Below, one piece after another: positions 1,053-9,385 of a stretch of DNA of 64,000 nt. Within the stretch, counting starts at the first letter, position 1. The number at the start of each line of letters is the position of its first letter. Both the position numbers and the translations under genes were made by a program. The stretch comes from Escherichia phage PHB12: the sequence record MK524178.1, one strand, 5' to 3'. The notes beneath the pieces are model-generated. The model was given only the letters and a program-made list of their open reading frames with translations, did not search any database and was not told the DNA's origin.

Positions 1053-2868
1053 AGGACATCCATTCTTTACGAAGTTCTGAATCATCACCCAACAACATTT
1101 CAAAGAGTTCTTTCCAATTTTCAGGAAGTTTAACTACGTCGTACACAGGGTTTTGAATCATTTCACGATATTCTGACTTTTCAAGGGAGCCCAATCCCTT
1201 GATGTATCGAATACTATGCTTAGGCAGTGTATCTTTAGCTTCTTCATACTCAGCTACAGTATAAAACCATTTTTGAGTTTTGCCAATTTGTGCAATAATT
1301 ACAGGCGTTTTAACAAAGCGAATACGTCCTTGTTCAAACAATTCAGGCCAATTACTAAAGAAAGCAAGCAAAGCCGGATAAATACTTCCAAGACCGTCAT
1401 GATCGGCATCGGTCATAATTGCAATATTACGATAGTTCGTATTCTCTGCCTTTTCACCAAGAATAAGACCTGTGATAGCACAGATATCAAAGAGCTCTTT
1501 GTTCTTCATCATATCAGCATATGACATACCCCAGCTATTCATTACCTTACCACGTAATGGGAACCCGCCGTGTAGTTCACGGTCACGAACATCAATGAGA
1601 TAACCAATTGCCGAATCACCTTCTGTTAAAAACAATGTCGTATCTGCATCTTTACCACATTGGTTAGCTTTAATATGCTTATGAACCTTAGCTTTAGTTG
1701 CCTTTTTAGCTGCTTTAGTTTCTGCAGCCTTTTCTGCTGCCAATTTACGAGCTAATGCTGCTTCAACAATAGGCATAATCAAGGCTTCGTTTTTAAGAAG
1801 TGCCTGAGCAATTTTCTTAGTATCTAATTGGATATGATTACGAATATCACCATACGTTGACGTTAAACGTTCTTTAGTCTGAGAATCAAAACGCATGTTG
1901 CTCATGTCTCTAATAAACATCAACATTGTGAGACATTCTTTAACACGAGCTTTAGTGACTTCAATACCCTTATATTTCTTTTTAATACCAGGCAAAAGAT
2001 GTTCGCAGATATCATCCATTACACATTCAACGTGATGACCGCCATTTTTAGTATGGATGTTATTCACATAAGTTAAATGTCGGAAGCCATCTGGTGATGT
2101 TGTGAATGCTATAGAGACTTTATCATTTTCTTGAATGATGTTATCTTCGCCAAATTGTTTAGCAAATCGTTTAAAATTACCATCAACCTTTTTACCATTA
2201 AATGTGAACTTGATATCAGGATAAACGACTGCCAATGTTTGAAGTCGGTCTAAAGTAATATCTAAATAAATTTGAGATAAATTATGCTCTTCAAATGAAG
2301 AGAAATCAGGAGTGAAGATTACTTTAGTGCCTTTACCTTTAGATTTCTTAGAAGACCATGATTTGTTTTCCATTCCGTTTGAACAGTTAACAGTGATTTC
2401 ATTTTCGCCATCTGACGTGATGCCTGTAAACAACGTAGAGAAGATATTAGTTAAACTACTCCCGACGCCGTTCATACCACCAGTCTTACGTTCAGAGTCA
2501 TCGCCAAAGTTACCACCAGCCTTTGGAATAGTCCAGGCTGCTACAGGCCCAGGAATTTGTTCACCTGTTTGGTCGGTAACTAAACCTTGAGGAATACCAC
2601 GCCCGTTATCTTCCACCGAAACTTGATTATTTTTAATTTGCACATCAATTTTATTTGCAAACTTAAATGATGTACGAATAGCTTCATCAACCGAGTTGTC
2701 AATAATCTCATCGATTAATTTAACCAGACCAGGAACATATTCAACTTGTTGATATTTACCAAACAAAAAACGCTCGTGGGCTTCTTTGGCCGAAGAACCA
2801 ATATACATGCCACTACGTTTCTTAATATGTTCTACATCTGACAATACCTTAATTTCATTTTTAATCAT
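1051..2868 (-). CDS. 39: DNA topoisomerase II large (ATPase) subunit, fused 39+60 form
   Basis: 605 aa; N-terminus MIKNEIKVLSDVEHIKKRSGMYIGS and GHKL motif DNGRGIP match T4 gp39; length implies the region that is separate gene 60 in T4 is fused in. Confidence 0.9.
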   Translation of the reverse strand: MIKNEIKVLSDVEHIKKRSGMYIGSSAKEAHERFLFGKYQQVEYVPGLVKLIDEIIDNSVDEAIRTSFKFANKIDVQIKNNQVSVEDNGRGIPQGLVTDQTGEQIPGPVAAWTIPKAGGNFGDDSERKTGGMNGVGSSLTNIFSTLFTGITSDGENEITVNCSNGMENKSWSSKKSKGKGTKVIFTPDFSSFEEHNLSQIYLDITLDRLQTLAVVYPDIKFTFNGKKVDGNFKRFAKQFGEDNIIQENDKVSIAFTTSPDGFRHLTYVNNIHTKNGGHHVECVMDDICEHLLPGIKKKYKGIEVTKARVKECLTMLMFIRDMSNMRFDSQTKERLTSTYGDIRNHIQLDTKKIAQALLKNEALIMPIVEAALARKLAAEKAAETKAAKKATKAKVHKHIKANQCGKDADTTLFLTEGDSAIGYLIDVRDRELHGGFPLRGKVMNSWGMSYADMMKNKELFDICAITGLILGEKAENTNYRNIAIMTDADHDGLGSIYPALLAFFSNWPELFEQGRIRFVKTPVIIAQIGKTQKWFYTVAEYEEAKDTLPKHSIRYIKGLGSLEKSEYREMIQNPVYDVVKLPENWKELFEMLLGDDSELRKEWMS

Positions 2869-2914
2869 GTTGTCTCCTCGTTATGAAGGTATTCTATCAT
2901 CCGAAATCTAAAGC

Positions 2915-2933
2915 AAAAAGGGCCGAAGCCCTT
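2915..2933 (-). terminator. hairpin terminator (GGGC-UUCG-GCCC + U-run)
   Basis: aaaaaGGGCcgaaGCCCtt on plus; sits between 2932..3357 and gene 39. Confidence 0.5.
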
Positions 2934-3357
2934 ATTTAAATTTAATTTTCTGAAGTGCATCAATTGCAGCCAAACGCCCTTGTTCACTTTTAACTGTAAT
3001 GACCACATCACCTGATACGATCACCGAACCATCAACAAATTCTACAGAGCCTTTTTTGAAATCGACAGATGTATCTGGTTCCGGAACTTCTTCAAAGAAT
3101 TTAAATTCTGCACCATAAAGCAGAATATCACCTTGCATACTATGAATAGTTCGGCCATAATCGCCTACGGCTTCTACGGCAATAACCGAAACGCCGTAAC
3201 CAATCATCTCTTCCACAATAAAATCTTTGGACAATAAAGTAGTATGCAGATTAGTATTAAGACGTTTACCAGTCGTATTAAGAATTCTCAAGAAATTATC
3301 TTCCTGTCCTTTGATAATACGATATTTCTTACCAACTTCAAAACCTTTAAAAGCCAT
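2932..3357 (-). CDS. hypothetical protein (39.1 position)
   Basis: 141-aa ORF directly upstream of gene 39, co-directional; no recognisable motif. Confidence 0.4.
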   Translation of the reverse strand: MAFKGFEVGKKYRIIKGQEDNFLRILNTTGKRLNTNLHTTLLSKDFIVEEMIGYGVSVIAVEAVGDYGRTIHSMQGDILLYGAEFKFFEEVPEPDTSVDFKKGSVEFVDGSVIVSGDVVITVKSEQGRLAAIDALQKIKFK

Positions 3358-3541: not shown

Positions 3542-3970
3542 TTATTCCTTAAAATGTGCTTTCAACATTTGATACAAAGACCATGCCTGGTCGTTATTTT
3601 CGATAGTAATCGTCATCACCGGAAATTCAGACAATTCGCCAAGTTCACCAGAATCTTGCTCTTCGGACGCTTGATATGGATTTCCCACTTCATCAAAAAA
3701 CTCTGCTTCACTAGTAGAGAGCCAGATAAAGTTTTCATCAAGGATATCACCGCCTGTTGCGTATCCAACCGTGCCAGTAGATGTCACAATTTTAGTAGGA
3801 CGACCAAGATGGTCAACATCTAATACTTTAAATGGTTCCATGCCAAGACGTCGTGCATAAATCCCATTATCAGTGTGGTTTTTAATAAACTCTTTTTGGG
3901 TACGTTTATCTTTAAATTGGTACCATGAGTTAACGCGGAATTTATTAGCCATTAGTAAGTTTCCTTCCAA
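3542..3970 (-). CDS. hypothetical protein
   Basis: 142-aa ORF in the 39-dexA interval; no motif. Confidence 0.45.
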
Positions 3971-4224
3971 TAAGTTGTACCGTTTTCAGTGATTTCACGG
4001 AAGATACCATAGATAGGCATTTCGTCACCGAGTTTTTCGTAAACGTAAACCACTTCGGTGTAGCATAAAAATTCGGTCCAGTTTTTCTGTACAACAACTA
4101 AATCAGGATTAAACAGAACATCTTCAAACTCATCGATGTTTGAATCAGTAGTTACGTTTTTAATGATTTGACGTTTCATAATATTCTCCTCTTGTTTTGA
4201 TAGGTCTATAGTATCATAGACCAT
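3952..4224 (-). CDS. hypothetical protein
   Basis: 90-aa ORF; promoter-like palindrome upstream near 4201-4240. Confidence 0.4.
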
Positions 4225-4236
4225 AGTTGTTGTACA

Positions 4237-4761
4237 TCATTTTAGCAAAATAAAATCAACTTGTTCTGCCAATGAACGTCTAAACATTAATTGACAACTT
4301 CCGAGGATGAAATCAGGTGCTTCATAGACCGCGATGTAGTATCCTTTAGCTTTCAAGAGTTCAACATCCACCTGGTCATCAAACCATGCATAAACCGCGT
4401 CAACACTTTCAAATCCAAAATAGAACCCTTGGGCCCAATCTTCACTCAATTCAAATGTGTGCTCAATTCTATAGTATCTTAAGATATTTTGTTCAAGGAG
4501 TTTGTCTTCATTTACTGTAGGACGATTAGGGACATTATAGTTGTCACCGTGATGGTAGAAGTTACCTGAGATTATTCCATGTTTATCAAGGAACTCCCAT
4601 GTTTCTTCAGAGTTGTCGGTGCCCGACCAACCGTATGGTGAACGAGGTTCTTTATTCCAAGAGGTTTCCCAAATTCTGACGGCTTTACCGTCTTCGATAG
4701 CAATTCCTGGTAATGATTCACGTTGAGTACAAAAACTACGTTCTACACGATAAACTAACAT
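4237..4761 (-). CDS. hypothetical protein (start moved to internal ATG after GAGGAG)
   Basis: Track ORF 4237..4818 begins upstream of the promoter; MLVYRVERSF at 4761 has RBS GAGGAG. Confidence 0.45.
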   Translation of the reverse strand: MLVYRVERSFCTQRESLPGIAIEDGKAVRIWETSWNKEPRSPYGWSGTDNSEETWEFLDKHGIISGNFYHHGDNYNVPNRPTVNEDKLLEQNILRYYRIEHTFELSEDWAQGFYFGFESVDAVYAWFDDQVDVELLKAKGYYIAVYEAPDFILGSCQLMFRRSLAEQVDFILLK

Positions 4762-4787
4762 ATTATTCTCCTCTGGTTGATATGGGT

Positions 4788-4816
4788 ATAATATCAAAAC
4801 CAGAGGAGAAGTAAAC
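4788..4816 (-). promoter_or_regulatory. early promoter (-35 GTTTAC, 17-bp spacer, -10 TATTAT) nested in 11-bp inverted repeat
   Basis: Minus strand GTTTAC-ttctcctctggttttga-TATTAT; arms 4768-4778 and 4798-4808, downstream arm carries the RBS GAGGAG. Confidence 0.55.
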
Positions 4817-4820
4817 AACT

Positions 4821-5240
4821 TTATGCGAAAGCAGCTGGGGTATATTTTTTAATTTGGAATTCAGGAACTACCATGAACTGACCAGCGAAAACGATGTTAT
4901 AAAGCTTAACACCATCTTCAACCCATTGGTCGCTGATAAATCCGGCGATTTGCTTAGTTTTCCACGGTGTTCCATCAGTTGCCGCAGCAATAGTGAATTC
5001 ATGGTCTTTTTCAACAGAAACTGATCTGCATAGTCCCCATTTGAACGCTTTTTCTTCTGGTTCAATGAATTGGCTTGAGACGTAGCCAATATTACCATTA
5101 GCATCACGAACTTTAACTTGGTTACGACCAAAAACCGGATCACTCACAGAAAGAACTTCAACCAACTTCCCGGCAACTTTAGAGCGAGAAGCAACAGATA
5201 CATATACGTAATCACCTGTAGAGAGATTTACAATATTCAT
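4821..5240 (-). CDS. hypothetical protein, member 1 of tandem paralogue family
   Basis: C-terminal FISDQWVEDGVKLYNIVF shared with the next two genes; N-terminal SVASRSKVAGKLVEV shared with 5250..5705. Confidence 0.5.
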   Translation of the reverse strand: MNIVNLSTGDYVYVSVASRSKVAGKLVEVLSVSDPVFGRNQVKVRDANGNIGYVSSQFIEPEEKAFKWGLCRSVSVEKDHEFTIAAATDGTPWKTKQIAGFISDQWVEDGVKLYNIVFAGQFMVVPEFQIKKYTPAAFA

Positions 5241-5249
5241 AATAATTCC

Positions 5250-5705
5250 TTAAGCTTTACGAGGAGACACATAGCGAGTGATTTCAGATTCTTTAACAAC
5301 TCGGAAGTCACCTAAGAATACGATATTGTATAACTTTTCACCATCTTCAACCCATTGGTCACTAATGAAGCCACACATAGTATCAGTTTTGCTTGGATAA
5401 CCGTATTCATCGATGAAGTCAAATTCTTTATCAGTCTGGAATTCAACGCCTTTGCAAAGGGCCCATTTGAACTGTACATTAGGTTCAGTGGAAGCAAAAT
5501 GAGCGCTCACAGGAGTTTCCAAGAATTTAGGACTTACGTAAGCGTACTGAGTATCCTGACGTCCAAAACTAGGAATGATTCGAACTTTAACTTCTTTAAT
5601 ACGTCCCATGCCATTTGTGCGAAGTCCGATAACTTCAACCAGACGACCTGCGGCTTTAGACCGGGATGCAATTGATACACGCTTAATTTCACCAATAGTA
5701 ATCAT
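5250..5705 (-). CDS. hypothetical protein, member 2 of tandem paralogue family
   Basis: GFISDQWVEDGEKLYNIVF and SIASRSKAAGRLVEV motifs. Confidence 0.5.
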   Translation of the reverse strand: MITIGEIKRVSIASRSKAAGRLVEVIGLRTNGMGRIKEVKVRIIPSFGRQDTQYAYVSPKFLETPVSAHFASTEPNVQFKWALCKGVEFQTDKEFDFIDEYGYPSKTDTMCGFISDQWVEDGEKLYNIVFLGDFRVVKESEITRYVSPRKA

Positions 5706-5734
5706 AATTTCTCTCTCTTTGTTAAATTGAATTC

Positions 5735-5764
5735 ACTATACTCCATCCGTCCTTGGATGTACAA
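5735..5764 (-). promoter_or_regulatory. early promoter-like (TTGTAC / TATAGT)
   Basis: Minus strand TTGTACAtccaaggacggatggagTATAGT upstream of 5250..5705. Confidence 0.4.
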
Positions 5765-5766
5765 CA

Positions 5767-6261
5767 TTAATTAAGGATATTAACCACAGCACTACGTGGA
5801 ACTACACTAAAATCACTTGAGTGAACAACGTTCAGAAGTTCAACACCGTCTTCAATCCATTGGTCAGTTACCCATCCATTTACTGGACCAGCGAATGGGC
5901 GTCGAATTGAAACATATTTACACAATAAATCAGTAGGCTCAATAGGCTTAATCAGAGTACCGTACATACAAGCGATATCCATATCAATACAGATGTCTTT
6001 AACGGGTTCTACTTCTTCAATCAACAGTTCAAAGTCGGTGCTTGGGATGGCAGTAGTAGAAATTGTACCGTATGAATTTTTAATTTCTAAGAATAACCAA
6101 GGGCCTTCAGCTTGTTTAATGAAGTTAACAATAGTGAAACTATTACCTTGAGTGGCACCTAAAATTTCACAAAACTTTTCATAAGCTCGCACTGAAGCAC
6201 CGTACCAGTTGATTTGTTTTTCGTCTTTCAGGATGTAAGTAGCCGTAGTATTGATATTCAT
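5767..6261 (-). CDS. hypothetical protein, member 3 of tandem paralogue family
   Basis: C-terminal GWVTDQWIEDGVELLNVV motif; own early promoter upstream. Confidence 0.5.
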   Translation of the reverse strand: MNINTTATYILKDEKQINWYGASVRAYEKFCEILGATQGNSFTIVNFIKQAEGPWLFLEIKNSYGTISTTAIPSTDFELLIEEVEPVKDICIDMDIACMYGTLIKPIEPTDLLCKYVSIRRPFAGPVNGWVTDQWIEDGVELLNVVHSSDFSVVPRSAVVNILN

Positions 6262-6292
6262 AATGTTTTTCCTGTTTGGTTAAGATAGAAAG

Positions 6293-6322
6293 ATTATACT
6301 CCAACCATCCTTGGTTGTAAAC
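6293..6322 (-). promoter_or_regulatory. early promoter (GTTTAC / TATAAT)
   Basis: GTTTACAACCAAGGATGGTTGGAGTATAAT; near-identical copies at 46653-46682 and 47643-47671. Confidence 0.55.
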
Positions 6323-6327
6323 TGGTT

Positions 6328-7005
6328 TTATCGCTGTTTTACACTTAACGGGTCAGGATTCTCAGGGACATCTTCAAGGCCAAGCGCATAACGCTGAGCA
6401 TATTTTAACATCAAAATATCTTTAGCACAATCATGAATACTATCATGGGCAACGAATCCTTTTAACGTACCCATCGGTAATGGACACATACTTAATCCTC
6501 GTGTCAACGAGTAAGCTTCGATTGCCGTACGAATATCGCGTTGAGCCCAGAATTTAACTGGTTCTAAGTTATCAGTATCGATCTCTGGTTCAAGAACACC
6601 TTCATCACGATAGAGGTCACGAATCAAATCGACCAAGATCGGGAAGTCAAAGCTCATACCACGGCACCACATCTGTGATTTCCATTGGTCGACTTTATTA
6701 GCTCGGCAATAGTCTAAAAAGATTTTAATACCTTCAAGCGTAGTGACATCGTCTTCAGACGGAGCCAAGTTTTTACGTGCTTCAGCCGATTGTTCTTTCC
6801 ACCATTTCATAGTGGATTTAGCGAAAACTCGCTTCCCTTTCTGAGAAGCTAAATTAAATTTAATTCGCTTACCTCGTTGAACAAGTTCTTCAAATGATTC
6901 AACAACTTCAGGGTCGGAATTATATGCAATAACCGCAAGGTCAATAACAGCCGCTTTTGATGTATTGCCGAATGTTTCAAAATCTATAATAACATCAGTG
7001 CTCAT
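6328..7005 (-). CDS. dexA: exonuclease A (DEDDh 3'-5' exonuclease)
   Basis: 225 aa; DFETFG (Exo I) and HDSIHDCAKD (Exo III) motifs; sits immediately before dda as in T4. Confidence 0.75.
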   Translation of the reverse strand: MSTDVIIDFETFGNTSKAAVIDLAVIAYNSDPEVVESFEELVQRGKRIKFNLASQKGKRVFAKSTMKWWKEQSAEARKNLAPSEDDVTTLEGIKIFLDYCRANKVDQWKSQMWCRGMSFDFPILVDLIRDLYRDEGVLEPEIDTDNLEPVKFWAQRDIRTAIEAYSLTRGLSMCPLPMGTLKGFVAHDSIHDCAKDILMLKYAQRYALGLEDVPENPDPLSVKQR

Positions 7006-7014
7006 AATTTTCTC

Positions 7015-8328
7015 TCAAATAAAATGGACGTCAAAACGACCACGAGTTGTACCGACATACAATAACTGTTTAGCTAATTCTGAATCGGCATAATGGATAC
7101 ACGGTGTATAAACAAAGGCCGTGTCAACAGACATACCCTGGGCCTTATGGAAGGTTGATACTGGTAGTGCCTTCACCTTAGTGAACATACGTTTAGCATC
7201 CCAGAATTCGCTCCATGGAGCTTTACCACCTTTATTCCAAAATTTGTATGTTTCTGCGGTCTTAGCCAAAAACAAATTGAATTTATAAAGCTCTTCTTCA
7301 GAAGAAATAACCTTTATATCTTCGCGGATGTATTCTTCATCATCCCCATATGTTTCTACTGTAAGATTCCAGTATCGTATCATATATTCGCCTGAAACAC
7401 CACGTGCTTTAACGAATGTAGACGTTTCTACAGCATCTCGAATACGAACGAATTGGCCGTTATTGAAAAGCATTTCGGTCATATTTTTACCATCTAGCTT
7501 ATATGTCTTAGTAAATGGCTCTTGTAGAACAATGACTTCGTCTTTAATAAATGGTTTTTCTGTTTCAAGAAGTTTTCGTCGAATAATTGAATTTAACTTG
7601 TCCACTGACTTATTTGTGAATGCCATCATTCGATTTTCGAAAAGGTCTTCAGGAGTTTTAACGACGTTAAAATAGTTCATCATATACGATTTAAGGTCTG
7701 TATATCCGTGAACACCGTGCCCATCAACTACTTTATCGTAAATCCATTTGCCATTACGAATATCAGTCGCAACATCAATAATTGGTGCATTGCTACGTTT
7801 AACTTCTGTAAGGTTGCATTGCACGAAGTCTTTGTGAGTGAAGAAAGGACTTAGATACGCAGTTGATTCGCCTGGGTCTACCGGACGAATCTGGCATCGG
7901 TCACCGATTCCAATTACTGTACACCATTTAGGGATACTAGCTAACATTATTTTAAACAGAGAACGGTCGCACATTGACGCTTCATCAAATAACAGTACAC
8001 GGCACAAGGCTAAGTCGGGGACCTTTTTCTGTTCAAACAATACGTTTTCTTCGTATGTAGTTGGGTTGATTTTAAGAATGCTATGAATAGTCGATGCTTC
8101 TTGACCAGCAAGTTTGCTTAGAACCTTTTTAGCAGCATGTGTAGGGGCTGCTAAAATAATACCTGATTCTCCAGAAGAAATAAGGGCTTCAACGATGAAT
8201 CTAGTAAGGGTTGTTTTACCTGTACCAGCAGGCCCATTAATAGTTACGTGATGTTTCTTTTCTTTAATAGCGTTCATAACAACGTTGAAGGCGTTTTTCT
8301 GGCCTTCAGTCAAATCATCAAATGTCAT
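7015..8328 (-). CDS. dda: Dda DNA helicase (SF1)
   Basis: 437 aa; Walker A GPAGTGKTT, Walker B LLFDEASM, T4 Dda-like N-terminus. Confidence 0.85.
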   Translation of the reverse strand: MTFDDLTEGQKNAFNVVMNAIKEKKHHVTINGPAGTGKTTLTRFIVEALISSGESGIILAAPTHAAKKVLSKLAGQEASTIHSILKINPTTYEENVLFEQKKVPDLALCRVLLFDEASMCDRSLFKIMLASIPKWCTVIGIGDRCQIRPVDPGESTAYLSPFFTHKDFVQCNLTEVKRSNAPIIDVATDIRNGKWIYDKVVDGHGVHGYTDLKSYMMNYFNVVKTPEDLFENRMMAFTNKSVDKLNSIIRRKLLETEKPFIKDEVIVLQEPFTKTYKLDGKNMTEMLFNNGQFVRIRDAVETSTFVKARGVSGEYMIRYWNLTVETYGDDEEYIREDIKVISSEEELYKFNLFLAKTAETYKFWNKGGKAPWSEFWDAKRMFTKVKALPVSTFHKAQGMSVDTAFVYTPCIHYADSELAKQLLYVGTTRGRFDVHFI

Positions 8329-8636
8329 CGTAAAGTCCCTGCAATTGGAATACTAACAATACGGCCTGTATCCAGGATTCGTTGATACAATTTTTGCGTC
8401 TCCGCATCTAGTTTAATGTGTTTCATTTCAAGCTTATTAAACCAGAACTTACGCGGAGTTTCGACCATTCTTAGAACTCCCATTTTTAAATCTGTTTTAT
8501 ATTGGGTTTTCAAAGTATCGAAAACTTTATCTGCAATATCCTTTCTAAAAAATACTGCAGGACGATGCTCATCAAGTGGAACCGGGACAGTAAATCCTTC
8601 CATATCTCGATAAACTATTGCATATACATAAACCAT
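8325..8636 (-). CDS. hypothetical protein (dda.1 position)
   Basis: 103-aa ORF overlapping dda start by 4 nt. Confidence 0.4.
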   Translation of the reverse strand: MVYVYAIVYRDMEGFTVPVPLDEHRPAVFFRKDIADKVFDTLKTQYKTDLKMGVLRMVETPRKFWFNKLEMKHIKLDAETQKLYQRILDTGRIVSIPIAGTLR

Positions 8637-8638
8637 AA

Positions 8639-9385
8639 TTAACCTTTAATCAGTTGGAATAATGATGCGCTAAGTGGTAAGCCACGTTTCAATTTTAATT
8701 TACCAATGAAACCGATCTTTTCAAAACGTTGCAGACCTTGGATAACTTTATCATATGTATCGAAAAGCGATTCAGCGTCAGTTAATTTAGTTTTAGTTTT
8801 CCAGTCAGAGCCTTTAAGAAGAACGTTGAGTTTAGTAAGTTCATGGCCTTCTGCTTGATGTGAGCCATTAATGCGTGCTTTCAAAGCAACAATTCTAAGT
8901 TTAGATTCGTTAGATAAAGGTTGATTTTTCATCATGTTCGCCATATGCTTAACACGATTTTCACGTTTTGCTCGGATTTTTAAAATAGTACCATAAACCT
9001 TTTTAATTTGGGCCCATTTCTTCTCGTCGAGATTAAGTTTCTCTACTTTACGGACAGAAGGATTAGCGATACGTCTTGCAATGGCATCACGTTTTTCAAT
9101 AAGTTCTTCTAATGTTAAATCAGAACGAGCCGTGTTATATTTTTTCTTAACTGGGATAACATTACCTTTAATGTAGCCTATATCATTATTAAAACGTTCT
9201 AAGGATAATTTCTCACCTTCAACAGAGTTATTGAAAGATTCACCTGAGTAAGCGCAGACCTTTTGATCAAGAATGTTTTTAAGGTAATTAAAGTCTAAGT
9301 TAAAATCCTTAGAGCGTCTCTTCGCAGAAGCTCTGGTGTGGTCAAGACGACGATTAATTTTGTTAATTTTATTATTTGATAACAT
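8639..9385 (-). CDS. hypothetical basic protein with HNH-like motif
   Basis: 248 aa; CAYSGESF...LERFNNDIGYIKGNV resembles His-Me finger/HNH endonuclease signatures; lysine/arginine rich. Confidence 0.4.
   Translation of the reverse strand: MLSNNKINKINRRLDHTRASAKRRSKDFNLDFNYLKNILDQKVCAYSGESFNNSVEGEKLSLERFNNDIGYIKGNVIPVKKKYNTARSDLTLEELIEKRDAIARRIANPSVRKVEKLNLDEKKWAQIKKVYGTILKIRAKRENRVKHMANMMKNQPLSNESKLRIVALKARINGSHQAEGHELTKLNVLLKGSDWKTKTKLTDAESLFDTYDKVIQGLQRFEKIGFIGKLKLKRGLPLSASLFQLIKG

Follow-up and report, generated by a model that had tools for sequence, protein, structure and literature searches.

Three MotB-family genes lie in tandem between dexA and cef

Between dexA (6328–7005) and cef (3952–4224) of Escherichia phage PHB12 (MK524178.1), three complete open reading frames follow one another on the minus strand and encode proteins of 164, 151 and 139 aa, with exactly the boundaries given in a first-pass annotation of the 64,000-nt stretch analyzed here (the window). 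These genes are motB.1, motB and a second motB-type gene (motB′), and together with a motB.2 homologue they occupy the early-region position between dexA and cef (Table 1). Judged by its sequence, the source phage is a Mosigvirus, that is, an RB69-like T-even phage: the 3.1-kb locus shares 97.9% DNA identity with Escherichia phage SF (Mosigvirus), is syntenic with the annotations of RB69, T4 and SF, and is found in the same arrangement, at least 80% covered, in 147 phage records. The gene order here (dexA-motB.1-motB-motB′-motB.2-cef) differs from that of T4 (dexA-motB.2-motB.1-motB-cef), and T4 has one MotB-type gene where PHB12 has two in tandem. The gene at the cef-proximal end, whose counterpart carries the motB.2 annotation in RB69, encodes a protein that is not significantly similar to any of the three paralogues. 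At the other end, dda and dexA directly adjoin in PHB12 (6328–8328), whereas dexA.1 and dexA.2 intervene in T4 (3726–6230 of T4 locus L002). Antisense frames on the plus strand within the genes, the longest of 106 aa, were set aside as mechanical ORFs without supporting evidence, and an Rfam search of the whole window returned no RNA family.

Table 1 Features of the motB region of PHB12 (positions in the window)
Feature	Position	Strand	Basis
motB.2 homologue (context only; without the module)	4237..4761	-	T4 MotB.2, 34% identity, E 4e-15
Second motB paralogue (motB′), 139 aa, two-domain architecture as motB	4821..5240	-	BLASTP, PF17613
motB orthologue, 151 aa: basic KOW-like NTD and shared CTD	5250..5705	-	T4 MotB, PF17613, phrog_1671
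motB shared CTD (aa 78-151)	5253..5474	-	AF2, charge
motB NTD (aa 1-63), holds SIASRSKAAGRLVEV	5517..5705	-	Charge, conservation, AF2
Weaker promoter-like site upstream of motB	5735..5763	-	TGTACA-17-TATAGT, 9/12
motB.1 homologue, 164 aa: NTD, linker motif and shared CTD	5767..6261	-	T4 MotB.1, phrog_2333, PF17613
motB.1 shared CTD (aa 108-164)	5770..5940	-	hhalign, AF2
motB.1 linker with conserved short motif DICIDMDIACMYGTLIKPI (aa 88-106)	5944..6000	-	pLDDT, recurrence in family
motB.1 NTD (aa 1-84), beta-rich, one helix	6010..6261	-	AF2, fold in PMC12152347
Sigma-70/T4-early-type promoter-like site upstream of motB.1	6293..6321	-	TTTACA-17-TATAAT, 11/12

Promoter-like sites precede motB.1 (a strong one of the early type) and motB (a weaker one), although these are consensus matches only and their regional total is no higher than in shuffled sequence. 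Both lie within a 44-nt intergenic repeat (D4) whose two copies, at 5718–5761 and 6276–6319, are 73% identical. The repeat resembles promoter-bearing cassettes that have been proposed to serve gene shuffling in T4-type phages. The 139-aa gene begins 9 nt past the motB stop codon, and the two are therefore probably co-transcribed.

A shared C-terminal domain is joined to two unrelated N-terminal domains

The first-pass annotation had described the three genes as tandem paralogues with a common C-terminal module, a reading that BLASTP and profile-profile comparison bear out at the level of the module. All pairwise similarities were significant: the 139-aa and 151-aa proteins share 44% identity over 145 aa (E 6e-34), the 139-aa and 164-aa proteins 52% over 29 aa (E 7e-10), and the 151-aa and 164-aa proteins 42% over 36 aa (E 3e-9). 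Alignment placed the noted block G-(F/W)-(I/V)-(S/T)-DQW-(V/I)-EDG-x-x-L-x-N-(I/V)-V in all three proteins, within a common core of the C-terminal domain (CTD) that reads G-[WFY]-[IV]-[ST]-D-Q-W-[VI]-E-D-G...L-x-N-[IV]-V, and likewise placed the S(V/I)ASRSK(V/A)AG(K/R)LVEV block in the 139-aa and 151-aa proteins. At the DNA level, the module appears as a 92-nt three-copy repeat (72% and 61% identity). When MotB-type and MotB.1-type CTD profiles were compared using hhalign, with sequences common to both profiles taken out beforehand, the match spanned 50 columns at a probability of 99.0% (E 4e-18); homology therefore takes in the whole CTD (~55–70 residues) and extends beyond the 20-residue block. 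An HMM and regular-expression search of all six frames of the 64-kb window found no fourth copy.

The paralogue reading holds less well for the 164-aa protein as a simple duplicate. Its N-terminal domain (NTD) is unrelated to that of the MotB-type proteins (hhalign probability <6%), and by profile comparison the protein is a domain-swapped relative, in which the shared CTD sits on a different head. Two further relationships, an internal duplication in which the NTD would resemble the CTD and a link between the KOW and LSm types of NTD, were each ruled out at the sequence level (hhalign probability ≤6%).

This division was already known. Patterson-West et al. 2021 (PMC7827196, section 3.2) reported that MotB and MotB.1 share a CTD and differ in their N-terminal domains, sorted homologues into categories by N-terminal domain, considered that one of motB and motB.1 probably arose by duplication of the other, and stated that “RB69 has two motB and one motB.1”; given the shared CTD and the RB69 copy numbers in that report, the tandem arrangement in PHB12 is not a new finding. 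What is added here is the charge contrast between the domains, the motB.1 linker motif and the 1-nt insertions that truncate MotB.1 in the T4 and RB69 reference records. We regard these as corrections rather than discoveries; their value lies in clarifying the length of MotB.1, the fold of the CTD and the linker motif for work on T-even host takeover.

The three proteins belong to a narrowly distributed two-domain family

All three proteins passed the curated gathering cut-off of the Pfam family PF17613 (MotB; 25 bits, whole-protein score), with 126 bits for the 151-aa protein (E 1.6e-36, full length), 75.9 bits for the 139-aa protein and 32.1 bits for the 164-aa protein, the last through a match confined to the CTD. 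PHROGs assigned the 151-aa (E 9e-64) and 139-aa proteins to phrog_1671 (“MotB-like transcriptional regulator”) and the 164-aa protein to phrog_2333 (E 6e-81). The 151-aa protein is 48% identical to T4 MotB (E 8e-42; residues 1–145 against T4 residues 2–156) and 92% identical to RB69 MotB, and the 139-aa protein is 37% identical to T4 MotB over its full length (E 7e-25). Both accordingly align full-length with MotB proper (Category 1 of PMC7827196), which the 164-aa protein does not; the latter instead carries the NTD and CTD of MotB.1 (Category 2; DPTDLLC...GWVTDQWIEDGVELLNVVH...SVVPRSAV). It shares 38% identity with the annotated T4 MotB.1 (E 2e-26) and 46% with the intact 143-aa form described below, aligns over 98–99% of its length with intact MotB.1 homologues (45–51% identity), and matches its counterpart in phage SF at 99% identity.

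Selection on the two motB genes is purifying rather than diversifying, as follows from dN/dS ratios against RB69 of 0.19 for the 151-aa gene and 0.13 for the 139-aa copy. In a neighbor-joining tree (without bootstrap support), the 139-aa clade branched outside all canonical MotB orthologues, a placement that would fit an ancient duplication retained in this lineage alone or, alternatively, a copy that evolves fast. Clustering of 303 homologues yielded N-terminal classes of the KOW type (177), the PP01 type (91) and the T4/RB69 MotB.1 type (29). The family as a whole is narrowly distributed: a CTD profile search of 1.84 billion representative proteins returned only 35 clusters at E ≤0.001, and all credible clusters among them belong to the same two-domain family. 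Multi-stretch matches in proteins of 449–1544 aa were rejected, as they covered only profile positions ~3–35 and look like unrelated repeats. A PDB sequence search with the 151-aa protein returned nothing at E ≤1, and a BFVD fold search (E ≤0.001) recovered MotB/MotB.1-family members, one KOW-domain protein and uncharacterised phage proteins, with no protein of known function.

Predicted structures and charge set a basic head apart from an acidic tail in MotB

AlphaFold2 (AF2), run with family alignments on the 151-aa and 164-aa proteins, predicted for each a disordered linker between two beta-rich domains of high confidence (pLDDT 85.3 and 80.1, respectively); the low pTM values (0.47–0.49) make the models uninformative on how the domains are arranged relative to each other. 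The NTD of the 151-aa protein, for which a KOW assignment has been published (PMC7827196), was modeled as four strands and a short helix (pLDDT 76–91), and V10, S11, S14, R15, S16, A19 and G20 within it are nearly invariant across 49 homologues. The NTD of the 164-aa protein was modeled with strands at residues 8–11, 42–49, 55–61, 67–73 and 80–83 and a helix at 26–37 (pLDDT 79–90). Kim et al. 2025 (PMC12152347) grouped the NTD of MotB.1 with GoF and Frd.2 in an LSm-like/SH3-like fold family, which is defined by an N-terminal bent five-stranded antiparallel beta-sheet. These two published structural relatives lack the shared MotB CTD (no match in the six-frame search).

The shared CTD has the same order in both models, namely β1-β2 (a long hairpin), β3, β4, a 3-10 turn and β5, with strands at residues 86–98, 104–120, 123–130, 133–138 and 142–145 of the 151-aa protein (pLDDT 88–94 from residue 81) and at 116–119, 127–137, 140–147, 150–155 and 159–163 of the 164-aa protein (pLDDT 86–93). 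An OB-fold would be a five-stranded barrel of the order β1-β2-β3-helix-β4-β5 with OB-fold structural neighbors; no helix lies between β3 and β4 here, and the modeled CTD resembles an acidic barrel of the SH3/Tudor-like kind more than it does an OB-fold. Among the nearest known systems to the three proteins are SH3-like small beta-barrels that serve as chromatin readers or as binders of RNA polymerase or nucleic acid, namely the tandem Tudor of 53BP1, the PHF19 Tudor, the MRG15 chromo, PWWP and the Spt5/NusG KOW domains.

Charge is divided unequally between the domains. In the 151-aa protein the NTD carries +7 (pI 10.6) and the CTD −4 (pI 4.7), and the CTD is also acidic in the 164-aa protein (−3) and in intact T4 MotB.1 (−4), both of which are acidic throughout (pI ~4.5–4.6). 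D, W, E, G, L, N and V make up the invariant positions of the CTD, and none of its conserved residues is basic. The 139-aa protein is approximately neutral and, compared with T4 MotB, retains little of the positive charge in its NTD.

The linker of motB.1 holds a recurrent short motif

Residues 86–106 of the 164-aa protein fall below pLDDT 50 in the AF2 model and contain a conserved motif of ~20 aa, h-h-D-x-D-[VIL]-[AV]-x-[MTA]-Y-[GVA]-x-[PL]-h-x-P across the family and D-x-D-h-A-x-M-Y-G-x-L/P-h-K-P in the version of the 164-aa protein. The motif recurs in ~100 family members at varying positions relative to the domains: it lies in the linker both of the 164-aa protein and of divergent KOW-type members, and it stands at the extreme N-terminus in a class of 176–183 aa. 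T4-type MotB.1 proteins differ in lacking the ~20-aa insert that holds the motif between the two domains of the 164-aa protein. Within the window it occurs this one time, with no second occurrence. The motif is a candidate partner-binding peptide.

Reference records of T4 and RB69 carry broken versions of motB.1

In the T4 reference (AF158101/NC_000866), a single additional G within the codons for DQWIEDG in motB.1 (record positions 7291–7650 of NC_000866.4, or 2792–3151 of T4 locus L002; counterpart in the window at 5824–5877) changes the reading to ...DQWIGRWR* and ends the protein at 119 aa. The extra G is absent from all 13 other near-identical T4-type records listed (T4T, the KJ4776xx, OZ, OL and MT records, RB55 and RB59), and T4T annotates a 143-aa MotB.1 identical to a protein found on 256 contigs. 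The 119-aa product has a mass of 13.80 kDa, and 13.8 kDa is the size of MotB.1 quoted by Kim et al. (PMC12152347) and UniProt P39415. From these comparisons, native T4 MotB.1 is probably a protein of 143 aa and 16.2 kDa with a complete CTD, which would leave the reference annotation ~24 residues short.

In the RB69 reference (NC_004928.1; record positions 8376–8872, or 3877–4373 of RB69 locus L003), motB.1 contains a surplus T at each of two sites 51 nt apart, as scored against the window and other Mosigvirus genomes, and these coincide with the annotated split of the gene into a 132-aa ORF and a separate 29-aa ORF. The 29-aa ORF, which is the “Category 3” of PMC7827196, maps, past both insertions, to the tail end of the intact gene. 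This version of motB.1 is found only in the two RB69 reference records, and the extra T residues are either a sequencing error or a stock mutation. A shared hotspot or programmed frameshift, as might be considered from the break near DQWIEDG in both references, was ruled out because AF158101/NC_000866 alone carries the T4 insertion, RB69 instead shows two distinct T insertions, and every other genome listed is in frame.

A division of labor between heads and tail is proposed

T7 gp5.5 and T4 Arn counteract the host protein H-NS, gp5.5 by binding H-NS directly and Arn as a DNA mimic. T4 MotB resembles these in being an early phage protein that interferes with H-NS–DNA complexes, yet it is unrelated to them in sequence and mechanism, as MotB binds DNA. 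It does so tightly and non-specifically, alters the H-NS footprint, up-regulates part of the H-NS regulon and improves phage fitness, its over-expression is toxic, and it co-purifies with H-NS/StpA only when DNA is present (PMC7827196, PMC6070864). DNA compaction by MotB is the subject of Son et al. 2021, as represented by its title in PMC12152347 and by a comment in PMC13096335. For motB.1, T4 deletion and amber mutants showed no laboratory phenotype (PMC12152347).

The explanation that we consider likely as a whole is that this cluster comprises motB.1, motB and a motB duplicate of a Mosigvirus. Their family identity and homology, domain architecture, narrow distribution and purifying selection are established by the results above, whereas DNA binding by the PHB12 proteins and a role for the CTD are proposals. 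Each small protein has two beta-barrel domains with a flexible linker between them, and one C-terminal barrel is common to all; the 151-aa and 139-aa proteins place a KOW-like barrel (SRSKxAG motif) in front of it, and the 164-aa protein an unrelated barrel, published as LSm-like, together with the conserved linker motif. Given its orthology with T4 MotB, the 151-aa protein most likely acts as an early nucleoid-associated protein made in abundance, which would bind DNA without sequence specificity, shift host H-NS/StpA on DNA and improve phage yield. With an acidic SH3/Tudor-like CTD, the basic NTD becomes the likelier surface for DNA binding, and we infer that DNA contact in MotB would be made mainly through this strongly basic, KOW-like domain. 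The charge of the 151-aa NTD is compatible with MotB-type DNA binding and that of the 139-aa NTD less so; since the latter is nearly neutral (+1), the 139-aa protein may not bind DNA as MotB does. The acidic, aromatic-rich CTD barrel would then act as a common protein-contact module, through self- or cross-association or through one shared partner, by which different nucleic-acid-binding heads could plug into the same process.

Several other accounts of the cluster were weighed against this reading. The shared CTD could itself be a nucleic-acid-binding OB-fold of the cold-shock/eIF5A type, through which all three paralogues would bind DNA or RNA and whose binding the N-terminal domains would only modulate; Patterson-West et al. 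2021 (PMC7827196) proposed an OB-fold for it on the basis of HHpred. We consider this unlikely, given that the CTD is net negative in both modeled proteins and in intact T4 MotB.1, the want of a conserved basic residue among its invariant positions and the SH3-like strand order. A further reading, in which the CTD is a docking or oligomerisation module, perhaps with the linker motif, and the paralogues co-assemble or bind one host target such as H-NS/StpA or RNA polymerase, seems to us improbable and is offered as speculation. If it held, a DNA-binding KOW head and a possibly RNA-binding LSm-like head would meet in one nucleoid-remodelling complex, and published MotB.1 experiments, which may have used a C-terminally truncated protein, would need repeating.

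That one or two of the copies are merely redundant or decaying duplicates without a function of their own would fit the dispensability of the region in T4 (PMC12152347), the motB.1 mutants without a laboratory phenotype and the broken motB.1 of the T4 and RB69 reference records. We nevertheless judge it very improbable, as all three frames are intact both here and in SF within a locus that recurs in so many records, intact homologues are widespread, the dN/dS ratios of the two motB genes fall far short of 1, the T4 break is peculiar to the old reference record, and the 139-aa clade is old and distinct in the tree. The first-pass annotation had also taken tandem diversification of the module as typical of host-interaction proteins. 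As intracellular host takeover this is tenable; in the sense of diversifying receptor-binding or host-range proteins engaged in an arms race at the cell surface, we give it almost no credence, since nothing speaks for it beyond the general occurrence of tandem paralogues that have a module in common. Searches of Pfam and PHROGs gave no match to a structural-protein family, and the genes lie in an early non-structural region (dda/dexA to cef/goF), beside early-type promoter-like sites. Furthermore, their products are small (139–164 aa), cytoplasmic-looking two-barrel proteins, the T4 orthologue MotB is an intracellular DNA-binding protein, and the selection on both motB copies is purifying.

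Related genes nearby and rearranged family members

A second paralogue pair lies nearby on the minus strand, comprising GoF (3542–3970; 72% identical to T4 GoF) and a second phrog_622 member (2932–3357). The latter weakly matches the MotB.1 PHROG (E 0.0012), in agreement with the published LSm-like N-terminal family. Among the homologues, a 43-aa protein of Escherichia phage BYEP01 (P0099) consists of the first ~17 residues of MotB.2 and the last ~26 residues of the MotB.1 CTD, and is apparently, from this composition, a deletion product that fused the neighboring MotB.2 and MotB.1 genes. Some homologues of 241–252 aa, including P0158, carry the N-terminal motif followed by seemingly two tandem PP01-type N-terminal domains, with the GKTYQL block present twice, and then the shared CTD.
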